Part shown: positions 1,672 to 48,382 of the stretch, piece by piece
Layout of the letters: every line of letters begins with the position of its first letter
Position numbering within the stretch: the stretch's first letter is position 1
Origin: Patescibacteria group bacterium
GTDB taxonomy: Bacteria; Patescibacteriota; Microgenomatia; Woykebacterales; RBG-16-39-9b
Length of the DNA: 56,835 nucleotides
Assembly (NCBI GenBank): GCA_025449635.1
Contig: JANWIZ010000016.1
Span: 1 to 56,835 of the forward strand
Direction of reading: 5' to 3'
Notes under the pieces: generated by a model
Seen by the model: only the letters and a program-made list of their open reading frames with translations
What the model was told of the DNA's origin: nothing
The model's database searches: none
Position numbers and translations under genes: made by a program

Positions 1672-2790
1672 ATGGAGTATTTAGGGATTTTAAAAAAGAG
1701 ATTCTCAAACCTTCCGTTTTCTAAAAAGCTTTTTTTAGGAAGCATTTTCATTTCTTTGTTAGTTTTTTCACTTTGGGCAGGCTATAATTTAGGCTATAAA
1801 AAACTTGTCATTAAAGATGAAGCATTATCACCTCGAGGTACGATTGTATCAGGTAAACCTGAGGAGCCGATCGATTTTCCAAATCCAATCAATGGGGTAT
1901 TATTTAAAAAAAGTGAGGCACAAGCATGGATAAATAACTTGCCATTAGCTGTGATGGTTGAGAATCACACCCAAGCTAGACCACAAACTGGTTTATCAAA
2001 AGCAGACATTGTTTATGAAGCTTTAGCTGAAGGTGGGATAACTAGATTTTTGGCAGTTTTTCTGCAAGAAGATACTCGCATTGGGCCGGTTCGGAGTGCA
2101 CGTTCTTACTATTTAGATTGGGCTGTAGAATACGATGCAGCTTATGTCCATTTTGGAGGGTCCCCAGATGCTATAAGTAAGATTAAAACCTATGGTATTA
2201 AGGATCTAAACGGGTTAACATTGGGAGCCCCCACCTTTGAAAGAAGTAAAGCACGGTCAGCTCCTCACAACGTTTATACAACAACACAAAAGCTACGAGA
2301 GAGAGCTAGTAGTAAGGGGATTAAAAAGGGGTCTGATATTGTTTCTTGGAAATTCCTTGATGAAAAGAATATACCAGCAAGAAAAGATCGACCTGAAACT
2401 TTTTTAATAAAATTAGATTTCAAAGGAACTTTCGGTTACAATGTTGAGTGGAGGTACAATGCTGATACAAATTCGTATTTTCGTTTCAACGCTGGTACTT
2501 CCGCAATAGATAACTCGACAAAATTACCTATTGAAGCTAAGACAATAATTGTGCAAACTGTACAAAATGCCCCTGACCCATCGGGGCATTCGCGTTTGAA
2601 AATGACAACAGTTGGTTCAAATTCTGTTGCGGTTTTTGAGAACGGAACATTTATTGAAGGAAGTTGGAAAAAAGATAGTAGAACTGCAAGAACTTTGTTT
2701 TATGATAGAGCTGGTGAGGAAATAAAATTGAATCGTGGTAAAATCTGGGTAGAAATTATTCCTCCTGGATCAAAATTTACTCATTCATAA
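1672..2790 (+). CDS. DUF3048 (YerB-like) domain protein, membrane anchored
   Basis: 372 aa with an N-terminal TM. The motif ADIVYEALAEGGITRFLAVF...PVRSARSYY is characteristic of DUF3048. Confidence 0.75.
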   Translation: MEYLGILKKRFSNLPFSKKLFLGSIFISLLVFSLWAGYNLGYKKLVIKDEALSPRGTIVSGKPEEPIDFPNPINGVLFKKSEAQAWINNLPLAVMVENHTQARPQTGLSKADIVYEALAEGGITRFLAVFLQEDTRIGPVRSARSYYLDWAVEYDAAYVHFGGSPDAISKIKTYGIKDLNGLTLGAPTFERSKARSAPHNVYTTTQKLRERASSKGIKKGSDIVSWKFLDEKNIPARKDRPETFLIKLDFKGTFGYNVEWRYNADTNSYFRFNAGTSAIDNSTKLPIEAKTIIVQTVQNAPDPSGHSRLKMTTVGSNSVAVFENGTFIEGSWKKDSRTARTLFYDRAGEEIKLNRGKIWVEIIPPGSKFTHS

Positions 2791-2801
2791 AGGAGGTAAC
2801 T

Positions 2802-3377
2802 ATGCTTAAAGATCTATTTATTTCAAAAACACGTGTAAAATTGCTAACGGTTTTTCTTACCAACCCAGGAAAAATATTTTATGTGCGTGAACTAGTAAGA
2901 ATGGTAAGTGAGCAGATTAATGCCGTTAGGGCTGAGTTGGCAAGAATGGAAAAAGTTGGAATGCTATCGAGCGAAAACAGGGCTAATAGAAGGTTTTACG
3001 GATTTAAAAAAGAGTATATATACTTTGACGAGCTTTCCAGGCTTGTTGCCAAATCCACTGGTTTAGGTGGGGATATTATAAAAGAGAGGGGAAAGTTAGG
3101 TAAAATCAAGTACGCGGTAATTTCAGGTGGTTATGTTCGTCGAAGACCTGTGGGGGTAAGTGATGTTGATCTGCTAGTTGTTGGTAATGTAGTGATTCCA
3201 CAATTAGCACAATTGGTGAAACGTTCTGAAGAAGAAATTGGTAGGGAAATAAATTATACTGTAATGACGGAAGATGAATTTAACTTTCGAAAAAGAAGAA
3301 AAGACCCATTTGTAGTTGGAATTTTGGAAAAAACTCGAATAATGCTGATTGGAGATGAAGAAGAAATTATTCATTAA
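2802..3377 (+). CDS. Winged-helix DNA-binding domain fused to a minimal nucleotidyltransferase-like domain
   Basis: The N-terminus (VRELVRMVSEQINAVRAELARMEKVGML) is ArsR-like wHTH. The C-terminal part has the GG...SDVDLLVVG pattern of minimal nucleotidyltransferases. Confidence 0.55.
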   Translation: MLKDLFISKTRVKLLTVFLTNPGKIFYVRELVRMVSEQINAVRAELARMEKVGMLSSENRANRRFYGFKKEYIYFDELSRLVAKSTGLGGDIIKERGKLGKIKYAVISGGYVRRRPVGVSDVDLLVVGNVVIPQLAQLVKRSEEEIGREINYTVMTEDEFNFRKRRKDPFVVGILEKTRIMLIGDEEEIIH

Positions 3378-3439
3378 GTCTTGTCCAACAGACCTTGTTT
3401 ACAATAGTCAATTTTAGTATTCTTTGTTTTAATTAAATA

Positions 3440-4774
3440 ATGTTAAAAAAGAGATTTGGGTTGTTCTTTATTTTAATAGTGACTTGTCTAGCTCTGATAG
3501 TTGATTGGCCAAGAGTGCCTGTAAAATTTAATTTAGGGCCAATCAAAATCGATACTGTACTTGCAGGTCCAAAGTTGGATACAAGTATTTTTGGAATACC
3601 AATCAAACGCGATTTGGATTTGAAGCTTGGGTTGGATTTGCAAGGAGGTACGGATCTTACTCTGAGGGCGGATATGACAGGAATTGCTGAAAAAGATCGA
3701 GATCAAGCGCTTGATTCCGTAAAGCAAGTTTTGGAACGAAGGGTAAATCTTTATGGAGTTTCGGAACCGGTTGTTCAAACCGCAAAAGCGAGTGGAGAGT
3801 ATAGAATAATAATCCAGCTTCCTGGAATTAAAGATGTCGATCAAGCAAAACAATTGGTAGGTCAAACTGCAAAATTGGAGTTTAGGGAAGCTGTTGACCC
3901 AGCTGCACAAGCACTGACAATAGAAAATACTAAACCTACGGGTATTTCCGGAAAAGATTTAAAGAGCGCAGATGCCGGGTTTTCTGATAGTCAGTCGAGC
4001 CAAGGCCCTTCTGCAACTGTTGTAAACTTTGAAATAAAAGATGAGAGCGCAGATAAATTTAAGCAACTCACAAAACGTTTATTGCAAAAGCCATTGGCTA
4101 TTTTTCTTGATGATACGCTTCTAAGCGCTCCAATTGTCCAATCGGAGATTGGAAGCAAGGGGCAAATTACACTAGGTGAAAATACTAGTATTGAGTACGC
4201 TAAGAGTCTGGCAACGAGTCTTAAAGCCGGTGCACTTCCAGTGAAAAAAATCGATATTGTTTCCGAAAGAACTGTTGGAGCAACTTTGGGTCAAGAGTCC
4301 GTACAGCAAAGTTTGCTTGCAGGTATGGTAGGCTTATTCGTTATTGGGGTGTTTATGGTTTTCTTTTACGGCTTGCCAGGAATGCTTGCTAACTTAGCAC
4401 TGATTGTTTATACATTAGTTTCGATTGCACTTTTTAAGACAATTCCGATAACGCTGACTTTGGCTGGTATTGCCGGTTTTATTCTCTCGATCGGAATGGC
4501 GGTAGATGCCAATGTTTTAATTTTTGAAAGGATGAAGGAAGAGCTTAGGGCAGGAAGACTGAGAAAACAAGCCATAGAGATTGGTTTTAGCAGAGCTTGG
4601 AATTCGATTCGAGATTCCAACGTTTCGTCTTTAATAACGACATTTATTTTGTTTATTTTTGGAACTGGACAAGTCAGGGGTTTTGCAATTACTTTAGCAG
4701 TTGGTATTGGAGTGTCTATGTTTACTGCCATTACTGTTACAAGAACCTTTCTTAGATTTGTCTATAAAGAATGA
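3440..4774 (+). CDS. secD: Protein translocase subunit SecD
   Basis: 444 aa. It has LGLDLQGG, RVNLYGVSEP and AKLEFRE motifs and a C-terminal 5-TM block with GFILSIGMAVDANVLIFER. Confidence 0.92.
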   Translation: MLKKRFGLFFILIVTCLALIVDWPRVPVKFNLGPIKIDTVLAGPKLDTSIFGIPIKRDLDLKLGLDLQGGTDLTLRADMTGIAEKDRDQALDSVKQVLERRVNLYGVSEPVVQTAKASGEYRIIIQLPGIKDVDQAKQLVGQTAKLEFREAVDPAAQALTIENTKPTGISGKDLKSADAGFSDSQSSQGPSATVVNFEIKDESADKFKQLTKRLLQKPLAIFLDDTLLSAPIVQSEIGSKGQITLGENTSIEYAKSLATSLKAGALPVKKIDIVSERTVGATLGQESVQQSLLAGMVGLFVIGVFMVFFYGLPGMLANLALIVYTLVSIALFKTIPITLTLAGIAGFILSIGMAVDANVLIFERMKEELRAGRLRKQAIEIGFSRAWNSIRDSNVSSLITTFILFIFGTGQVRGFAITLAVGIGVSMFTAITVTRTFLRFVYKE

Positions 4775-5715
4775 GACTAAGGAAAACTTTTTTCAAAAGA
4801 CGGCCCAAAAGCACTTTTAAACTGCTAAAAAAAACTTTGGAGCAACATAGTCAAGAGTTAATCTCTGAGCTTGAAGATAAGCACAAAGACACACTCAAAT
4901 GGTTTTCTAAAAAGGGAATAAATTTAGATGAGGTTGTTAAAACAGGGTCAAGAGGTGCTTTGACAGGGTTGGCAGCAGGGTTTGTATTACTCTCGAGTGG
5001 TGTAACAGCGAAGGTTGAAGAAAGACAGGTAACAACTAGTAATCTGAGTGTTAATCATATAGTTGGAGAGATAAAAGCTCGGCAAGCACAGGAGCAAAAC
5101 CTTTTAAAAATGCTTCAAGAAACATTACCGAGAAATAAAAACCAGCTGACGGATGCAGAGGCAGATAAAGTTGCTCAATCGGTTTCCCAAGTAAGCGGTA
5201 TTAATGTAAAGGCGGGTTTAGCTGGAAATAGATTGAATACAAATTATGGGAAGATTGGCCTAGAGCAGCATTTACCTAGATACCCAGGAGAAAAGATGGA
5301 AGACCATTTTCTTTCTGGGAGTGGAGTAAGTCGTTATTTGAAAAGTGGGATGACAAGGAATCGAGGAGCGTTTGGTTATTTTGCTAAAGATAAACACAGT
5401 CTCACACCAGACGCGATTGAAAAGGAAAAATATTATGTAGTTGTTCAGACTTTTGCTTTCGATGGTTGGGGTAAAAATAGAAATATGAGAGAGTGGTATA
5501 AGCACAGGAAAATGATTGTTATAAACACTAAAAACGGCAGAGCAGTTGTTGGGGTTATCGCCGACAGTGGTCCGGCAAGATGGACCGGAAAAAGCTTTGG
5601 CGGTTCGCCAGAATTGATGGATCAGCTTGGAATGTATCAAGGAAATCGAAAATCCAAAGTATTAATGTTTTTTGTTGATGATGCTGGTGGAAGTATTAAG
5701 TTAGGACCACTTTAA
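4771..5715 (+). CDS. Hypothetical membrane-anchored protein with a possible RlpA-like double-psi beta-barrel C-terminal domain
   Basis: The ATG overlaps the secD TGA (ATGA). There is one TM, GALTGLAAGFVLLSSGV. The C-terminal KMIVINTKNGRAVVGVIADSGPARWTGKSFGGSPELMDQLG resembles the RlpA pattern V-N--NGR-VV--V-DRGP---------S-----LG. Confidence 0.5.
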   Translation: MRLRKTFFKRRPKSTFKLLKKTLEQHSQELISELEDKHKDTLKWFSKKGINLDEVVKTGSRGALTGLAAGFVLLSSGVTAKVEERQVTTSNLSVNHIVGEIKARQAQEQNLLKMLQETLPRNKNQLTDAEADKVAQSVSQVSGINVKAGLAGNRLNTNYGKIGLEQHLPRYPGEKMEDHFLSGSGVSRYLKSGMTRNRGAFGYFAKDKHSLTPDAIEKEKYYVVVQTFAFDGWGKNRNMREWYKHRKMIVINTKNGRAVVGVIADSGPARWTGKSFGGSPELMDQLGMYQGNRKSKVLMFFVDDAGGSIKLGPL

Positions 5716-38416: not shown

Positions 38417-38608
38417 TTTTGACTTTCCACACGTGAAACGTACACCACCAAAAAAGTGGTTCCGAGACCCATTCACAACAAAGCACAAAGTATTGGATAA
38501 GTTCTTTTTAATTTCTGAGATTTCAGCCAGCTTAAGGACAGGAAGCTAGTTTAGAAAAATAGCGTGATTTTTTGCGGCCAATTTTTGGAAGCAATAAAAG
38601 TTGTAAAT

Positions 38609-39076
38609 ATGAAATGTCCATATTGTAATTACTACGATACATCAGTTCTAGACTCAAGGGATTCTGAGGATTTAGGCTCTATTCGCCGCCGCAGAGAGTG
38701 TATGAAGTGCGAAAAAAGATTCACAACTTATGAGCGGGTTGATATGGTTGACATGATTGTTATGAAGAAGGACGGAAGAAGAGAGCAATTTGACAAGAAA
38801 AAGCTAATGACAGGAATGCTTAAAGCAACTGAAAAAAGACCCGTAACAATGGATCAAATTGAGAAAGCAGTTGATGAAATAGAAAGAGAGTTACGTAAAC
38901 GGGATAGTATCGAGATACCTTCAAAGATAATGGGTGAATTTGTGATGAATAAACTCAAAAAACTAGATGAAGTCGCGTACATCCGTTTTGCTAGTGTCTA
39001 TCGATCTTTTGATGATCTAGAGACTTTCGAAAAAGAAGTCAAGAGTTTATTAAAAAATAAGGGTCAGGTAAGTTAA
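38609..39076 (+). CDS. nrdR: Transcriptional repressor NrdR
   Basis: It has MKCPYCN...CMKCEKRFTTYERV (zinc ribbon) plus an ATP-cone. ATG 38609 is preferred over the GTG at 38564. Confidence 0.93.
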   Translation: MKCPYCNYYDTSVLDSRDSEDLGSIRRRRECMKCEKRFTTYERVDMVDMIVMKKDGRREQFDKKKLMTGMLKATEKRPVTMDQIEKAVDEIERELRKRDSIEIPSKIMGEFVMNKLKKLDEVAYIRFASVYRSFDDLETFEKEVKSLLKNKGQVS

Positions 39077-39120: not shown

Positions 39121-41691
39121 ATGGCAAGCTCGAGTTCAAAAGCTAAAAAATCTCAAGGAAAGGAATTTGTATTTTCTGTACAGACACAGAAAAGGCTTGA
39201 AAGTTTGATCAACGATTCTGAGCAGACTCAACTCGAAGGAATCAGGCTCAAAGTGTTTAGTGATCGTTACTCCCTTAAAGACGCTGAAGGCAAAGCTATA
39301 GAGGCTTATCCAGAGCAAATGTGGTCTCGTGTAGCAGCTGGACTTGCACAGGTCGAAAAAACCCCAACAGATCAAGAGAAATGGACTAAGAAATTTTACT
39401 CTGCTCTTAAAGATTTTAAATATGTTCCTGGAGGTAGAGTCCTTTCTGGTGCTGGTACCCCTTACGAAGTAACTTTTTATAATTGTTTTGTCATCCCTTC
39501 CCCACACGATTCACGTAATGGAATTATTGATAACTTGAAACTAATGGTCGATATTATGTCTCGTTCTGGCGGGGTTGGTATCAACCTTTCCTCCTTGCGT
39601 CCTCGCGGGGCCAGGGTCAAAAAAGTTAACGGAACAAGCTCAGGACCGGTCAACTGGGCTCAACTTTATTCAACTGCAACTCATGATGTGATTCAGCAAG
39701 GTGGTAGTCGTCGAGGTGCTTTAATGCTGATGCTCAACGATTGGCATCCAGATGTTGAGGAGTTTATTGAAGTCAAAAAAGATTTAACGAGAATCAACGG
39801 TGCTAATTTGTCAGTGTGCGTTACCGATGCATTTATGGACGCTGTCAAGAAGAACGGTGATTGGGATCTCTACTACCCAGATATTACTGATCCGGAATAT
39901 GACAAACTTTGGGACGGTGATATTGATAAATGGAAAGCCGCAGGAAAAAAAGTTGTAGTTTATCGTACTGTCAAAGCCGCACAAGTATGGGAAAAGATTT
40001 GCAACGCAGCCTGGACAAGTGCTGAACCAGGACTGCATTTTATCGAGAGAAGTAACAAAAGAAGTAACACCTGGTACTTTGAGAAACTGATCGCAACCAA
40101 CCCTTGTGGAGAGCAGCCACTTGGAGCTTGGGCAGTTTGTAATCTTGGAGCAGTTAATTTGTCTGCTTTTGTAGACTCTAGTGGCAATTTTGACTATAAA
40201 GATCTTGAGGAAAAAGTTCAAACTGCGATTCGTATGATGGACAACGTGATCGATGCAACAGGTTACTATTTCCCTGAAAATAAAGAACAGCAAATGGGAA
40301 TTAGACGTACGGGATTGGGGACCATGGGTTTGGGCGATGCGCTGATAAAGATGAAACTTCGTTACGGTAGTACAGAAGCCCAATCAACAATCGAGAAAAT
40401 TTATAAAACAATCAGAGATACTTCTTATGAAGCATCAGCTCTTTTAGCAGCTGAGAGAGGGGCCTTTTCGAATTTTGATAAAGATAAATACCTTCAAGGT
40501 TGGTTTATCAAGAAATTGCCGAGTAAAGTCCGCGATTTGATTGCTAAAAACGGTATTCGTAATGCGGTACTGTTGACCCAAGCTCCAACGGGAACAACAT
40601 CACTTATTTCAGGAGTCTCTTCCGGAATAGAGCCGGTCTATGATTTTGCTATGATTCGACGGGACCGAACTGGAGAACACACGATATATCACCCACTTTA
40701 TCAAGCTTGGAAAGAAGCTAACCCAAATGTTGAAAAAGCACCAGAATATTTTGTTAGTGCTAACGATCTAACGCCAGAAGACCATGTAAGTGTTCAAGGT
40801 TTAATTCAGGATTACACTGATAGTTCGATCAGTAAAACAGTCAATGCACCAAATGCCCACACAGTTGACGAAGTGCGACGTCTCTATATGCAGGCTTACG
40901 ATCTAGGTTGTAAAGGTGTGACATACATGAGAGATGGAAGTCGTGAAGGCGTTCTCTCTCACAAGGACGATAAAGCTGAGAAGAAGGAAGAAACTGCAGC
41001 AGTGGCTGCTAATGTACCGGTGCATTTGCGCAAACGACCAGACAATCTTCGTGGGGTTACAAGAAGAATTGCGACCCCAGTTGGACATGCATTTGTAACA
41101 ATCAACGAAGATGAGGCAGGCAATCCATTTGAAGTGTTTATCAATGTCGGAAAAGCCGGTACTGATATCACTGCTGATGCAGAGGCAATTGGAAGATTGA
41201 TCTCTTTGGCATTACGAATACCATCAAATTACAGTCCAGGTGAAGTCGTTCAGCAAATAGTAAATCAAATATCAGGGATTGGTGGGAGTTCCTCGAGAGG
41301 TTTTGGAGCAGATCGTATTCACTCTCTTGCGGATGCGGTTAGCAAGGTATTGGCAGACTATGCTGGTAAAGTAAGTACTTACCCAGCTATCACAGAGGCA
41401 AAGCTTACAAACGGTAATAGTCAGGTTGCGGTTAATGGTAGTGCAAAAACAAATGGTTATACCAATGGAAACGGTCACACACCTGCACCTGAGGTTAAAG
41501 AATCAACAGCATCAGAAACAATAGAAGTTAAATCTGAAGAATCAACTGGTGTGACAATGCAGCTTTCGGCTGGATCTCCGATCAGTAAGACTGTTTCTCG
41601 TCGTGATATTTGTCCAAAATGTGGAGTCGCTAGTTTCGTATATGAAGAGGGTTGTAAGAAATGTTACTCTTGTGGACATAGTGAATGTTGA
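39121..41691 (+). CDS. nrdJ: Adenosylcobalamin-dependent ribonucleotide reductase (class II)
   Basis: 856 aa. It has the active-site region NPCGEQPL...CNLG, the SGGVG and GGSRRGA loops, and a C-terminal zinc ribbon CPKCG...CKKCYSCGHSEC typical of class II RNRs. Confidence 0.9.
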   Translation: MASSSSKAKKSQGKEFVFSVQTQKRLESLINDSEQTQLEGIRLKVFSDRYSLKDAEGKAIEAYPEQMWSRVAAGLAQVEKTPTDQEKWTKKFYSALKDFKYVPGGRVLSGAGTPYEVTFYNCFVIPSPHDSRNGIIDNLKLMVDIMSRSGGVGINLSSLRPRGARVKKVNGTSSGPVNWAQLYSTATHDVIQQGGSRRGALMLMLNDWHPDVEEFIEVKKDLTRINGANLSVCVTDAFMDAVKKNGDWDLYYPDITDPEYDKLWDGDIDKWKAAGKKVVVYRTVKAAQVWEKICNAAWTSAEPGLHFIERSNKRSNTWYFEKLIATNPCGEQPLGAWAVCNLGAVNLSAFVDSSGNFDYKDLEEKVQTAIRMMDNVIDATGYYFPENKEQQMGIRRTGLGTMGLGDALIKMKLRYGSTEAQSTIEKIYKTIRDTSYEASALLAAERGAFSNFDKDKYLQGWFIKKLPSKVRDLIAKNGIRNAVLLTQAPTGTTSLISGVSSGIEPVYDFAMIRRDRTGEHTIYHPLYQAWKEANPNVEKAPEYFVSANDLTPEDHVSVQGLIQDYTDSSISKTVNAPNAHTVDEVRRLYMQAYDLGCKGVTYMRDGSREGVLSHKDDKAEKKEETAAVAANVPVHLRKRPDNLRGVTRRIATPVGHAFVTINEDEAGNPFEVFINVGKAGTDITADAEAIGRLISLALRIPSNYSPGEVVQQIVNQISGIGGSSSRGFGADRIHSLADAVSKVLADYAGKVSTYPAITEAKLTNGNSQVAVNGSAKTNGYTNGNGHTPAPEVKESTASETIEVKSEESTGVTMQLSAGSPISKTVSRRDICPKCGVASFVYEEGCKKCYSCGHSEC

Positions 41692-41727
41692 CAATTTAAA
41701 GTTGTTGGATTAGATTAGTAACACTTT

Positions 41728-41780
41728 AAGATTTTCGAAAGTGCTTTAATTCGAAAATCTTGCACCCCGCTTTGCGGGTC
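41728..41780 (+). terminator. Two consecutive hairpins after nrdJ, a probable terminator region
   Basis: There is a perfect 12-bp stem AAGATTTTCGAA (41728-41739) paired with TTCGAAAATCTT (41750-41761). A CCCGC-TTT-GCGGG hairpin follows at 41766-41778. The trailing T-run is weak. Confidence 0.45.
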
Positions 41781-41789
41781 TTAAAAATT

Positions 41790-41939
41790 TAGATCAAAGG
41801 ATGTTTGGTGAAGCCTGGTGAGATTCCAGGGGAGTGCCGCTACTGTATACCCAGAACCCAACCTTTGAATTCCTTCGAGCAAAGGAGGTGCCGATGAAAC
41901 ATTGATTCGACCAACCCTTAGCGGTTGGTTTTCGTTTTT
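41790..41939 (+). promoter_or_regulatory. Cobalamin (B12) riboswitch with a terminator expression platform
   Basis: The core CCTGGTGAGATTCCAGGGGAGTGCCGCTACTGTA and the downstream GGAGGTGCC resemble the conserved GGTGAAAATCC / CCCGCCACTGT / B12-box elements. The element ends in the stem ACCAACC (41910-41916) paired with GGTTGGT (41923-41929) plus TTTCGTTTTT. Confidence 0.75.
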
Positions 41940-42008
41940 CTGCCAATTATTAAGTATTTAAAAGGAGTTAAAATATGTCGTTGACGCGTCATATTACTTA
42001 AGAAAGTT

Positions 42009-42428
42009 ATGAAATTTATTCAAAAAAACATTCTTTTAGTTGTAGTTTCTATTGCGGTTATTTTTGGTGGAGGTTTTTATTATATAAACCAAAATAAACC
42101 TGAGAATACGGAATCTAATACTTCCACAACACAAGAAAAGACAGAAATTACCAAAGTTACGATCAATTTTGATGGTCAGGAAAAAAGCTATGAAGTTAAA
42201 AACGCTATTGGTAAAACAGCTCTTGAAGTTACGGAAGAAGCAGTAACGATTGAGAAAACCGGAGAGGGAAAAGACGCTTTTATCAATAGTATCAATGGTC
42301 GCGTTGCAGAGGAAAGTAAGAACGAATTTTGGAAATTGGTAATCAACGGCAAAGACAGTGAAGTTGGAGCGGGAAGTTACACCATTGTAAATGGTGATAC
42401 TTTGGTTTGGGAAATCGATACTTATTAG
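42009..42428 (+). CDS. DUF4430 (transcobalamin/intrinsic-factor-like beta domain) protein, membrane anchored
   Basis: 139 aa. It has an N-terminal signal anchor. The C-terminus FWKLVINGKDSEVGAGSYTIVNGDTLVWEI matches the DUF4430 pattern W.y.vNG......ga....v.dGD.i.w. Confidence 0.75.
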   Translation: MKFIQKNILLVVVSIAVIFGGGFYYINQNKPENTESNTSTTQEKTEITKVTINFDGQEKSYEVKNAIGKTALEVTEEAVTIEKTGEGKDAFINSINGRVAEESKNEFWKLVINGKDSEVGAGSYTIVNGDTLVWEIDTY

Positions 42429-42445
42429 CAAGACTTAGGGTTGTT

Positions 42446-42487
42446 CAGTATGGCTGAGAATTGATATACTAGTTCTCAGCCATACTG
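42446..42487 (+). repeat. Perfect 15-bp inverted repeat (intercistronic stem-loop)
   Basis: CAGTATGGCTGAGAA (42446-42460) pairs with TTCTCAGCCATACTG (42473-42487) around a 12-nt loop, TTGATATACTAG. No T-run follows. Confidence 0.9.
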
Positions 42488-42500
42488 CTCCAAAATTATT

Positions 42501-43052
42501 ATGCAAAAAATACTCGAAAAATTAACTAACCCAGCAATATTTGTCTTAATCGCTGCTACTTTACGTCTGGTTCCGCACGCGCCAAATTTTGCCCCGATCG
42601 GCGCAATGGCACTTTTTGGTGGAGCTTATCTTGGGAAACGCTACGCGATTGCACTTCCAATAGCCGCGATGTTTATTTCTGATCTGTTTCTTGGGTTTGA
42701 CGGAATTACTTCAAGACTAACTGTTTACGGGGCATTTATACTTATTGGTTTGATCGGTTTTTGGCTTCGAAATCACAAGAGTTTTCAGAATATAATTCTA
42801 GCTTCTCTGACAGCTTCAATTTTGTTTTTTATTACAACCAATTTTGGGGTATGGGCCTTCGGAACGATTTATCCAAAAACAGTTGAAGGATTTGTGGCTT
42901 GTTTCGTAGCGGCAATTCCTTTCTTTCGAAACACAGTAGCCGGAGACTTGTTCTATACTGGAGTGTTTTTTGGTGGTTATGAACTAGTTTTACGACTTGC
43001 GCAATCAAAGAAGCTTACTTTAATTAGAAAGGGGGTCGAAAGAAATGGCTAA
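42501..43052 (+). CDS. DUF6580-like polytopic membrane protein (putative vitamin/cobalamin transporter component)
   Basis: 183 aa with about 6 TM. The N-terminal LRLVPHAPNFAPIGAMALFGGAYLGKRYA...ISDLFLGF is as remembered for DUF6580 putative transport proteins. Confidence 0.6.
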   Translation: MQKILEKLTNPAIFVLIAATLRLVPHAPNFAPIGAMALFGGAYLGKRYAIALPIAAMFISDLFLGFDGITSRLTVYGAFILIGLIGFWLRNHKSFQNIILASLTASILFFITTNFGVWAFGTIYPKTVEGFVACFVAAIPFFRNTVAGDLFYTGVFFGGYELVLRLAQSKKLTLIRKGVERNG

Positions 43053-43284
43053 AAAACAAGAGGAGTTTAGTGTTAAAGGTGAGGATGTCGTCAAAAAAGT
43101 AAAAGAAATAATCAAAGAAGGTAATGTCCGACGAATAATCATCAAAGATAAAAAAGGAAAAACCTTGATTGAACTACCGCTTACTATTGGGGTAGTTGGT
43201 GCTCTATTAGCCCCACCACTAGCAGCTGTTGGTGCAATTGCAGCTCTAGTGACTGAATGTACTATTGCAGTTGAGCGTGAATAG
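43045..43284 (+). CDS. DUF4342 domain protein
   Basis: 79 aa. VKKVKEIIKEGNVRRIIIKDKKGKTLIELPLTIGVVGALLAP..AAVGAIAALVTECTI is typical of DUF4342. It overlaps the upstream gene by 8 nt. Confidence 0.75.
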   Translation: MAKKQEEFSVKGEDVVKKVKEIIKEGNVRRIIIKDKKGKTLIELPLTIGVVGALLAPPLAAVGAIAALVTECTIAVERE

Positions 43285-43286
43285 GC

Positions 43287-43315
43287 TTGACTGAAGTTGC
43301 AAATCTATATATAAT
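43287..43315 (+). promoter_or_regulatory. Near-consensus sigma70-type promoter TTGACT-17-TATAAT
   Basis: The -35 is at 43287-43292 and the -10 at 43310-43315, with a 17-nt spacer. It starts 3 nt after the DUF4342 stop. Confidence 0.6.
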
Positions 43316-43327
43316 CTAAACTTCGTG

Positions 43328-43363
43328 AAAACAACTCTTGGTTCTGAGCTGTTTTCTTTTTTT
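43328..43363 (+). terminator. Intrinsic terminator-like hairpin plus T-run
   Basis: A 10-bp stem with one mismatch (43328-43337 paired with 43346-43355) and an 8-nt loop is followed by CTTTTTTTT. Confidence 0.55.
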
Positions 43364-43407
43364 GGTGTTTTCAACCACAAACAACCCAAAATAGAAATGG
43401 AGGCCTA

Positions 43408-43500
43408 ATGCTTACCGGTTTTGTTTGCATCATGATCGCGACTGCATTCGTTTTGACGATTTTGGATCCAGAAGGAGAGATACCGACACTAGGGATTTAG
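43408..43500 (+). CDS. Candidate 30-aa hydrophobic micro-protein
   Basis: GGAGG lies 5 nt upstream of ATG 43408. The product is MLTGFVCIMIATAFVLTILDPEGEIPTLGI*, with one TM-like segment. It is followed by a strong terminator. It is not in the ORF track because of its size. Confidence 0.35.
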   Translation: MLTGFVCIMIATAFVLTILDPEGEIPTLGI

Positions 43501-43539
43501 GAAACAGAGTCATAGAAGAGGGAGAGATTATTAAACCAA

Positions 43540-43582
43540 CCTACTTTGTTGTTAAGTCAAACAAAGTGGGTTTTTTCTTTTT
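43540..43582 (+). terminator. Strong rho-independent terminator
   Basis: An 11-bp stem CCTACTTTGTT (43540-43550) paired with AACAAAGTGGG (43560-43570), with one GU pair, is followed by TTTTTTCTTTTT. Confidence 0.75.
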
Positions 43583-43611
43583 GTCTGGTTTTTTTGATAT
43601 ACTTTTCTTTA

Positions 43612-47539: not shown

Positions 47540-48382
47540 ATGGAATTTACACACCCTGAGGTATTAAAAATTGAAAAGCTTTCCAAAGTTTACGGGGTTG
47601 GGAATATTGAAGTACGGGCTGTCGATCATGTAGATCTTATAGCCAGTGGTGGTGAAATAATATTGATCATGGGACCCTCTGGAAGTGGAAAGACGACACT
47701 TATTACCATTGCTGGAGCTTTACTCAAACCAACATCAGGTTCAGTTTATATAGATGGTCAAAATATTGTAACATTGCCAGAACGAGAAAGGATTTGGTTA
47801 AGAAGAAATAAAATTGGTTTTGTTTTTCAAGCATTTAACCTTTTGTCCAATCTAACAACTTCAGAGAACGTATTTATTCCATTAGGTCTTTCTGGCATAA
47901 ATCGTAGCCTAGCAAGGAAAAAAGTTGATGGTTTATTAGAAGAATTTGATCTTGGAAATCGAGCTAGTTTTACTCCAGAAAAGCTTTCAGGTGGAGAAAA
48001 ACAGCGAGTTTCTATTGCCCGGGCTCTGGTCAACGATCCTAAACTTATTTTGGCTGATGAGCCAACTGCCAATCTTGATTCGCAACGAGGTCGTGAAGTG
48101 ATGCGATTACTTCGTTCAGTCGCCAAAAATATGGGGAAGACTGTGATTATAGTTAGTCATGATCAGAGATTGATGGAAATCGCTGATAGAGTTTTGTGGA
48201 TGGAAGATGGCAGAATCAAAGCTTTCGAAAATCTCGAAGCAGATCCGAATTGCGGAGCAAGTGTAGAAGTACGTAGTTCAACACCAAAACTAGACTATAG
48301 AGGTAAGAAATACTTCTTTTGTAGCAAGGATTGTAAGAGCGAATATGTTCAGAAGAATAAAATTCCTGCAAGTTACTTCTAA
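47540..48382 (+). CDS. ABC transporter ATP-binding protein fused to a C-terminal YHS/TRASH-type metal-binding domain
   Basis: It has Walker A GPSGSGKTT, LSGGEKQR, ILADEPT and VSHD. The C-terminal DPNCGASVEV...YRGKKYFFCSKDCKSEY matches the YHS pattern DPVCGM......Y.G..YYFCS..C...F. Confidence 0.85.
   Translation: MEFTHPEVLKIEKLSKVYGVGNIEVRAVDHVDLIASGGEIILIMGPSGSGKTTLITIAGALLKPTSGSVYIDGQNIVTLPERERIWLRRNKIGFVFQAFNLLSNLTTSENVFIPLGLSGINRSLARKKVDGLLEEFDLGNRASFTPEKLSGGEKQRVSIARALVNDPKLILADEPTANLDSQRGREVMRLLRSVAKNMGKTVIIVSHDQRLMEIADRVLWMEDGRIKAFENLEADPNCGASVEVRSSTPKLDYRGKKYFFCSKDCKSEYVQKNKIPASYF

Follow-up and report, generated by a model that had tools for sequence, protein, structure and literature searches.

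A candidate cobalamin salvage unit of the cbrS-cbrT type behind a class II cobalamin riboswitch in a Patescibacteria group bacterium

This report concerns a cluster of genes in a 56.8-kb stretch of DNA (contig JANWIZ010000016.1; hereafter, the window) from a Patescibacteria group bacterium. On the + strand, the genes for the repressor NrdR and for NrdJ, a class II, adenosylcobalamin (AdoCbl)-dependent ribonucleotide reductase (RNR), are followed by an aptamer, a terminator, and genes encoding a DUF4430 protein, a DUF6580 membrane protein, and a small DUF4342 protein, in that order. An initial annotation, made from the letters of the window alone, described a cobalamin riboswitch gating a B12-related uptake unit beside a B12-dependent RNR, and covariation, orthologues, and gene context bear this out. 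It also took the system to be of an unrecognized kind, a view that we do not share: DUF6580 has an S-component fold and is a distant homologue of the B12 carrier CbrT, the gene order matches that of the nrdJ-cbrS-cbrT-pduO cluster of Lactobacillales, and the unit is a distant variant of the cbrS-cbrT (ECF-CbrT; ECF, energy-coupling factor) and BtuM type. Tentatively, and with doubts that slightly outweigh our confidence, we propose a B12-repressed, cbrS-cbrT-type cobalamin salvage unit in which DUF6580 would be a solitary, BtuM-like carrier serving the adjacent class II RNR. Across the loci described below, the consumer, the capture protein, the carrier, the trapping enzyme, the outer membrane receptor, and the B12-sensing RNA jointly point to cobalamin uptake.

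The AlphaFold2 model of DUF6580 (pLDDT, 89.4) adopts a six-helix S-component fold, and a Foldseek search with it returned BtuM as the best match (TM-score, 0.64-0.67; probability, 1.0), followed by RibU, FolT, PanT, and ThiT; the structure library searched included the BtuM entries 8C7P and 8OVV. By sequence, the sole match in the PDB is CbrT (6FNP_A): the single sequence aligns with it through residues 5-171 of its 183 with an E value of 0.025, and a 36-sequence DUF6580 profile gives 0.0018 (all PDB chains, E up to 10). An hhalign comparison of DUF6580 with 24 CbrT homologues spans 158 columns (84.7% probability; E = 6.6e-6), and the two have the motifs LR..PN(F/V)xP and S(D/N)..GF in common. 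The entry 6FNP holds ECF-CbrT, an ECF transporter for vitamin B12 from Lactobacillus delbrueckii (PMC5997447). When the sequence of its chain A, which is CbrT, was used as a query, the proteins retrieved were from Lactobacillales and bore the annotation of ECF transporter S component. Taken together, the fold match to BtuM and other S-components and the homology to CbrT place DUF6580, an S-component-fold protein, among the relatives of known B12 carriers, with CbrT as a distant homologue; it is presumably a B12 translocator. The membrane protein is thus kin to vitamin transporters and not a member of a nonvitamin family, a possibility that the initial annotation had named as one that would count against its proposal.

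Kinship at this distance does not amount to family membership. The window protein hits PF20221 only, and residues 9-174 of CbrT hit PF12822 and PF07155 but not PF20221; a few homologues, among them some of the Lactobacillales homologues of CbrT, match PF20221 as well as PF12822. A placement of DUF6580 in CbrT's own Pfam family (PF12822, ECF_trnsprt) was considered and dropped, the homology being at the profile level only. Membership in the BtuM family was likewise rejected, there being no PDB sequence match to BtuM and no conserved cysteine. Across 36 aligned DUF6580 sequences, the invariant polar residues are R22, H26, N29, D61, N114, N144, and D149. The family is large: PF20221 had 4,115 hits (E <= 0.001) when representatives of 90%-identity clusters were searched, and it is encoded at no fewer than 585 species-level genome loci. 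In the searchable literature, we found no mention of DUF6580 and no functional study of the family.

A nrdJ-cbrS-cbrT-pduO cluster was reportedly also described by Rodionov et al. in 2009, alongside Santos et al. At the Lactobacillus helveticus locus (L087/L088; L numbers denote the loci that we compared), the order is nrdJ (744 aa), a 136-aa DUF4430 protein, CbrT, and PduO. The gene in the cbrS position is a DUF4430 gene, because it is DUF4430 that lies between nrdJ and cbrT there, and the DUF4430 domain of the window aligns with this protein at an E value of 4e-6. CbrT of L. delbrueckii lies in a nrdJ-cbrS-cbrT-pduO cluster (Santos et al. 2018, PMC5997447). Judged from these alignments and gene orders, the DUF4430-DUF6580 pair of the window is the equivalent of cbrS-cbrT in the Candidate Phyla Radiation (CPR). 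Both units join a class II RNR, a DUF4430 protein of about 136-139 aa, and an S-component-fold protein of about 175-183 aa in the same order, DUF6580 and CbrT are homologous over nearly their full length, and 23 CPR relatives add a PduO adenosyltransferase at the end, which gives nrdJ-DUF4430-DUF6580-PduO. The differences are also clear. The membrane proteins fall into PF20221 and PF12822, respectively, and are about 20-26% identical; the CPR unit has a riboswitch after nrdJ, and none was detected in the L. helveticus locus; the window has no pduO, although the nrdJ and DUF4430 context is otherwise the same; and a DUF4342 gene, which the Lactobacillus cluster lacks, is appended in the lineage of the window.

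The DUF4430 protein (59.9 bits against a Pfam PF14478 cutoff of 23.8) begins with a membrane anchor and ends with the DUF4430 domain, the two being joined by a linker rich in Thr and Glu. The anchor is its one hydrophobic segment, in agreement with the earlier description of a membrane-anchored protein. Its assignment to the beta-domain type of transcobalamin and intrinsic factor was also well founded: the DUF4430 profile matches the haptocorrin beta-domain (4KKI, residues 328-433) at an E value of 3.6e-5 and, more weakly, intrinsic factor and transcobalamin. We therefore presume, from profile similarity, that the protein is a putative extracytoplasmic corrinoid binder; the searchable literature that mentions DUF4430 offers a statement about the transcobalamin domain only and reports no cobalamin binding for a bacterial member. 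In contrast to the two-domain eukaryotic carriers, the window protein is a beta-like domain on a membrane anchor, without an alpha domain. Some relatives do add an alpha/alpha-toroid domain. Toroids of the SQHop_cyclase/prenyltransferase-like type, fused or adjacent to DUF4430, occur at L092 (2381-4444), L091 (4087-6001), L041 (3244-4974), and L017 (555-2057), behind the same riboswitch. This arrangement is possibly the bacterial counterpart of the two-domain design of transcobalamin.

The 317-nt leader between the nrdJ stop and the DUF4430 start contains the three core motifs that had suggested a B12 riboswitch: GGTGAGATTCC at 41817-41827, AGTGCCGCTACTGTA at 41833-41847, and GGAGGTGCC at 41884-41892. 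When a 341-nt leader was searched alone, the AdoCbl-II model (RF01689, clan CL00101) matched the aptamer end to end at 34.0 bits (E = 1.9e-6), which is below the Rfam gathering cutoff of 36.5 bits; in an Rfam scan of the whole window at gathering thresholds, the sole match was accordingly a tRNA. In its likeness to RF01689, the aptamer is a full-length match to the 81-position model, has GCCGCUACUG as its conserved core, includes a hairpin that covaries, and sits 5' of B12 uptake genes; its score sets it apart. The comparative data settle the matter. AdoCbl-II or Cobalamin (RF00174) matches above cutoff lie immediately 5' of DUF4430 in 7 of 15 related loci. Elements in the same position score above cutoff in L001 (40.4 bits), L002, L005, L010, L015, L016, L024, and L091 (40.6 bits), and the orthologous elements 5' of DUF4430 in L001, L002, L010, L015, L016, and L091 range from 36.8 to 53 bits. 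When eight elements are aligned, compensatory changes appear at each of the five base pairs in the main hairpin.

A covariance model built from this eight-element alignment of above-cutoff orthologues found 55 elements in 45 of the 80 DUF6580 loci of our census (described below), all in the orientation of the downstream genes, as well as one element in each of three further close relatives of the window; it found none in the control loci. In the 55-sequence alignment, 90.9% of cells pair, whereas shuffles give 72% and slid controls no more than 47%, and there are 102 compensatory double-change cells against 27 expected. Of the matches, 34 lie directly 5' of DUF4430, 4 directly 5' of DUF6580, and 2 directly 5' of a gene for a TonB-dependent receptor. 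The platform is equally recognizable: an 8-bp, G+C-containing hairpin (41909-41930) composed of GACCAACC-CTTAGC-GGTTGGTT is followed by TTCGTTTTT, a T-run that ends at 41939, as supported by the minimum free energy (MFE) fold. A terminator scan identified this as the sole terminator-like site on the + strand in 41600-43600, so that the hairpin and T-run called from the letters were indeed there, and L001 has an equivalent hairpin and T-run in which base changes preserve the stem. We thus accept the leader as a putative class II cobalamin riboswitch with a terminator-type OFF platform, the direction of switching being taken from the family; orthologues and covariation carry this reading of the leader, despite the window's own subthreshold score.

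Several other features of the leader deserve mention. Directly after the nrdJ stop, at 41730-41785, there are two hairpins, GATTTTCGAA...TTCGAAAATC and then CCCGC-TTT-GCGGG, which have a promoter-like site (41688-41716) on their 5' side and the aptamer on their 3' side and may be the terminator region of nrdJ. The first of them gave a match to the S4-Flavobacteria model at 41730-41759, which we discarded as a chance hairpin (23.9 bits against a cutoff of 35.2, in the wrong context). Farther downstream, an 8-codon mini-open reading frame (MSLTRHIT*, 41975-42001) sits behind a strong Shine-Dalgarno sequence, AAAGGAG (41961-41967), and ends 7 nt 5' of the DUF4430 ATG, whose own Shine-Dalgarno sequence is weak. 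A role for it as a leader peptide was dropped: L001 lacks the insertion, and there the Shine-Dalgarno sequence directly precedes the DUF4430 start.

How general is this arrangement? Our census covered 80 species-level genome loci encoding DUF6580, mostly from CPR/Patescibacteria and some from Ignavibacteriota and Bacteroidota. DUF4430 adjoins DUF6580 in 60 of them, nearly always directly upstream, and nrdJ and nrdR lie upstream in 35 and 25, respectively. A PduO-type adenosyltransferase is directly downstream in 23 loci and a CobA/BtuR-type enzyme upstream in 11, such that an adenosyltransferase of either type accompanies DUF6580 in 34/80. TonB-dependent receptors are found near DUF6580 in 14 loci. 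These belong with the 20 loci that have no DUF4430, mostly from diderms, in which the receptor is the only recurrent neighbor (14/20). In Ignavibacteriota and Bacteroidota (L050, L057, L061, and L062, at about 2600-5530), an RF00174 riboswitch scoring 75-107 bits precedes the receptor and DUF6580 in all four receptor loci examined, and no ABC or ECF partner recurs at such diderm loci. The DUF6580 protein of the window is 50-56% identical to these receptor-linked proteins. In the 56.8-kb window itself, homologues of PduO, CobA, the toroid, the VirD4-like protein described next, and the TonB receptor were searched for, and none was found.

Two side observations come from the same loci. In many CPR relatives, there is a second cobalamin riboswitch 3' of DUF6580/PduO, with sites at L013 (6151-6239), L023 (6025-6114), L016 (5801-5912), L026 (6137-6243), L029 (6135-6223), L043 (6039-6130), and L048 (6043-6147), among others. 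In at least eight loci (e.g., L016, L026, L029, L043, and L048), it lies directly 5' of a gene for a protein of about 450 aa that has no Pfam or PDB match and carries a C-terminal CxxCG...CxxCG motif, followed by a protein of about 163 aa without assignment and a VirD4/TrwB-like ATPase of about 790 aa; none of these three genes is present in the window. Also, the window's closest relative, L001 (DATBWR010000004.1), was deposited as "Candidatus Nanoarchaeia archaeon." This record is probably misclassified, because it has nrdR and a bacterial, CPR-type gene order.

What, then, would drive transport? The initial annotation reported no BtuCDF, ECF-AAT, or TonB parts in the operon, and this can be extended: EcfT/CbiQ, tandem EcfA-type genes, BtuCDF, and TonB parts are absent from both the operon and the 56.8-kb window, and no further S-component was found among the polytopic membrane proteins of the window. 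Its three ABC ATPases comprise one fused exporter and two that belong to MacB/FtsX systems. In group II ECF systems, S-component genes are scattered over the genome and the shared module is encoded elsewhere. The absence of an energizer at the operon, which had been presented as a mark of the system, is no anomaly and is expected for an S-component, because group II modules lie elsewhere and because BtuM and some BioY proteins need none. BtuM of Thiobacillus denitrificans is a solitary, S-component-like B12 transporter that works without an ECF module (Rempel et al. 2018, PMC6072759). It colocalizes with btuB, the context that led to its prediction, and its Cys80 is an essential cobalt ligand (PMC6072759). 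DUF6580 resembles BtuM in being a small membrane protein without a linked energizer, in having BtuM as its best structural match, and in adjoining a TonB-dependent receptor in diderms (in the four loci examined, behind a cobalamin riboswitch), comparable to the colocalization of BtuM with btuB. It differs in that its profile finds no sequence similarity to BtuM PDB chains, in having no invariant counterpart of Cys80, and in having a DUF4430 partner, which BtuM lacks.

The same facts can be arranged differently. DUF6580 could be a group II ECF S-component like CbrT that docks on a shared EcfAA'T module encoded elsewhere and is driven by ATP, a serious possibility that we nonetheless doubt rather more than we credit. 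CbrT is the sole PDB sequence relative of DUF6580, the gene order is identical to that of Lactobacillales nrdJ-cbrS-cbrT-pduO, a few homologues match PF12822, the ECF S-component family, in addition to PF20221, and an operon without an energizer is just what scattered S-component genes would give. Moreover, solitary CbrT is inactive without its module and fails to complement Escherichia coli (PMC5997447). Yet no EcfT or EcfA is encoded in the window, and none recurs near DUF6580 in the 80 loci; the top-ranked literature on the CPR does not mention energy-coupling factor transporters, which is weak evidence; and DUF6580 proteins 50-56% identical to that of the window occur in diderm riboswitch-TonB receptor units, the context that defines solitary BtuM. 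Because identity to these receptor-linked proteins is so much higher than the roughly 20-26% identity to CbrT, we lean slightly, and narrowly, toward DUF6580 as a solitary carrier like BtuM.

Several points weigh against that proposal and should be stated together. The comparison with diderms leans on an assumption, namely that Ignavibacteriota and Bacteroidota lack ECF modules. The window is a fraction of a genome, and it is possible that an ECF module is encoded elsewhere in it. The similarity between DUF6580 and CbrT is weak, and the chain of CbrT itself is missing from the list of 50 Foldseek matches to the DUF6580 model. No cysteine is invariant or near-invariant in the 36 aligned DUF6580 sequences, so that the cobalt-ligating cysteine of BtuM has no invariant counterpart. 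The aptamer of the window falls 2.5 bits short of the curated Rfam cutoff, and no adenosyltransferase is encoded in the window. Corrinoid binding by DUF4430 and transport by DUF6580 are putative roles. Finally, the nearest characterized sequence relative, CbrT, needs an ECF module (PMC5997447).

Is cobalamin the right substrate? The pair could instead import something other than complete cobalamin, such as cobinamide, alpha-ribazole or dimethylbenzimidazole, or cobalt. Cobalamin riboswitches control transporters for cobalt and for precursors in other bacteria. It is also the case that ECF-CbrT carries cobinamide (PMC5997447). This alternative is nevertheless very unlikely in our view: corrinoid remodeling or assembly genes do not recur in the 80 loci, and the partners that do recur are nrdJ, adenosyltransferases acting on complete corrinoids, BtuB-like receptors, and transcobalamin-like binders.

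The idea of a salvage module survives with respect to the riboswitch-gated binder and carrier, whose context supports it, and finds no support with respect to a third component, DUF4342. In the window, the DUF4342 gene is probably cotranscribed with DUF6580, because its open reading frame (ORF) overlaps the DUF6580 stop by 8 nt. Besides the window, the two are linked in L001 and in three close relatives, L091, L092, and L093, with DUF6580 at 67-73% identity; the overlap is again 8 nt in L091, and DUF4342 follows at 2-88 nt in L001, L092, and L093. All of these linked loci lie behind the same riboswitch. Such tight and consistent linkage is what one would expect if DUF4342 were a functional third subunit, e.g., a coupling or regulatory partner of the carrier. 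We consider a three-part system of this kind unlikely, and a function of DUF4342 in uptake is correspondingly improbable, in view of several observations. The triple DUF4430-DUF6580-DUF4342 occurs in 1 of the 80 loci (L001) plus L091-L093, far from the co-occurrence that a conserved unit would show, and the Lactobacillus cluster has no DUF4342. L091, L092, and L093 also share the wider order nrdR-nrdJ, PGM, IMPase, and MacB-type ABC system, so that inherited synteny explains the linkage. In other CPR lineages (L081-L086), the neighbors of DUF4342 are either sortase and glycosyltransferase genes or CSD and DUF1801 genes; B12 genes and riboswitches are lacking at these sites, and these unlinked proteins show 73-80% identity.

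Indeed, DUF4342 (about 80 aa; homologues P0122-P0240) is 73-92% identical across distant CPR classes, far above its neighbors. Its model (pLDDT, 75) has a beta-alpha-beta-beta-alpha-beta order, in which the hydrophobic stretch is a buried helix in a small alpha/beta fold; structure and PDB sequence searches with it gave no significant match, only generic small alpha/beta proteins and faint roadblock/MglB-like hints. We found no mention of DUF4342 in the searchable literature. On its distribution across genomes, DUF4342 is probably a lineage-specific passenger and not part of the conserved system.

The layout of the locus is summarized in Table 1. The initial annotation had placed nrdR-nrdJ immediately upstream of three linked ORFs, the last two of them overlapping by 8 nt, and all five genes were found so arranged and are supported by Pfam; NCBIfam gave nothing useful for the DUF4430, DUF6580, or DUF4342 protein of the window.

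Table 1. Features of the nrdJ-DUF4430-DUF6580 locus (positions in the window)
Feature	Coordinates	Strand	Support
nrdR (Zn-ribbon + ATP-cone repressor)	38564..39076	+	Pfam Zn_ribbon_NrdR 1.5e-20, ATP-cone 2.6e-21
nrdJ-type class II (adenosylcobalamin-dependent) RNR	39121..41691	+	Pfam Ribonuc_red_lgC 1.3e-124, Ribonuc_red_lgN, TSCPD
Putative AdoCbl-II (class II) cobalamin riboswitch aptamer	41794..41868	+	RF01689 34.0 bits; covariation, 55 homologues
Intrinsic terminator (putative riboswitch expression platform)	41909..41939	+	Terminator scan, MFE fold
CbrS-like DUF4430 protein	42009..42428	+	Pfam DUF4430 3.5e-16, residues 68-136
Stem-loop between DUF4430 and DUF6580 genes	42446..42487	+	Perfect 15-nt inverted repeat
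DUF6580 membrane protein, S-component fold	42501..43052	+	Pfam PF20221 1.1e-55; AlphaFold2 model, Foldseek
DUF4342 small protein, 79 aa	43045..43284	+	Pfam 2.4e-30

The RNR has barrel, all-alpha, and TSCPD domains and is the presumed consumer of imported B12; lying upstream of the riboswitch, nrdJ is not under its control. Besides the TSCPD domain, NrdJ has a long low-complexity linker, and its C terminus is a zinc-ribbon-like tail (CPKCG...CKKCYSCG). The 72-nt gap between the DUF4430 and DUF6580 genes holds the inverted repeat, which folds into an 18-bp stem (-31 kcal/mol; z = -5.1). It is the structure and not the sequence of this stem-loop that is conserved, because the same gap contains inverted repeats of other sequence in L001, L092, and L093. 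The stem-loop may set the ratio of binder to carrier expression or stabilize the upstream mRNA. Elsewhere in the window, at 47540-48382, one of the MacB/FtsX-type ABC ATPases has a C-terminal YHS domain, an architecture that is kept in L091, L092, and L093.

In total, these observations are consistent with the following model for the unit as a cobalamin salvage system with a solitary carrier. The aptamer and the terminator are features of the leader itself, and we infer ligand binding and the direction of switching from the riboswitch family. At high intracellular cobalamin, the aptamer would bind its ligand, the terminator would form, and transcription would stop, as in an OFF switch; when B12 is scarce, the operon would be read through. 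The DUF4430 protein, held by its one N-terminal helix at the outer face of the membrane, would bind corrinoid via its transcobalamin-beta-like domain and concentrate it there. DUF6580, with its six helices, would then pick up the cobalamin and move it through the membrane by toppling or by an elevator motion, as is typical of S-components. No energizer is encoded here, and DUF6580, like BtuM, would do its carrying alone. The imported cobalamin would supply NrdJ, and in many relatives a cluster-encoded PduO- or CobA-type adenosyltransferase would trap the import as AdoCbl. DUF4342 would be cotranscribed in this lineage, outside the conserved machinery.

Placing the unit among known systems reduces its novelty without removing it. 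What is left, on comparative grounds, is DUF6580 as a so far uncharacterized S-component family and the putative role of a bacterial transcobalamin-like partner. We can go further and posit a joint reading, which as a whole we regard as somewhat doubtful. DUF6580 would be the third S-component-fold family to move a vitamin without an ECF module, after some BioY proteins and BtuM; its ligand chemistry would do without the BtuM cysteine, possibly by way of the invariant His26; and, in the monoderm CPR, the carrier would be fed by a membrane-anchored, transcobalamin-like CbrS/DUF4430 protein, in some lineages with both alpha-toroid and beta domains. Can an S-component work alone with a transcobalamin-like helper? 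This is the mechanistic question that the locus raises.

For annotation, the consequences are more immediate. Where DUF6580 is encoded beside a cobalamin riboswitch, "putative cobalamin transporter" is a reasonable name for it, and DUF4342 should not be included in the system. The DUF6580 and DUF4430 families are now linked to the characterized ECF-CbrT and BtuM systems, and a concrete, testable function is offered for PF20221 and for bacterial DUF4430/CbrS, two families for which we found no functional study in the searchable literature.

The DUF4430-DUF6580 pair is the best candidate for how these CPR bacteria obtain B12. In many of the CPR bacteria at these loci, the uptake unit accompanies a B12-dependent RNR, which would make DNA synthesis in these cells reliant on B12 scavenged from outside. 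If the joint reading given above is true, the unit would be how CPR and DPANN cells, ultra-small and auxotrophic for B12, supply the only RNR that they have.

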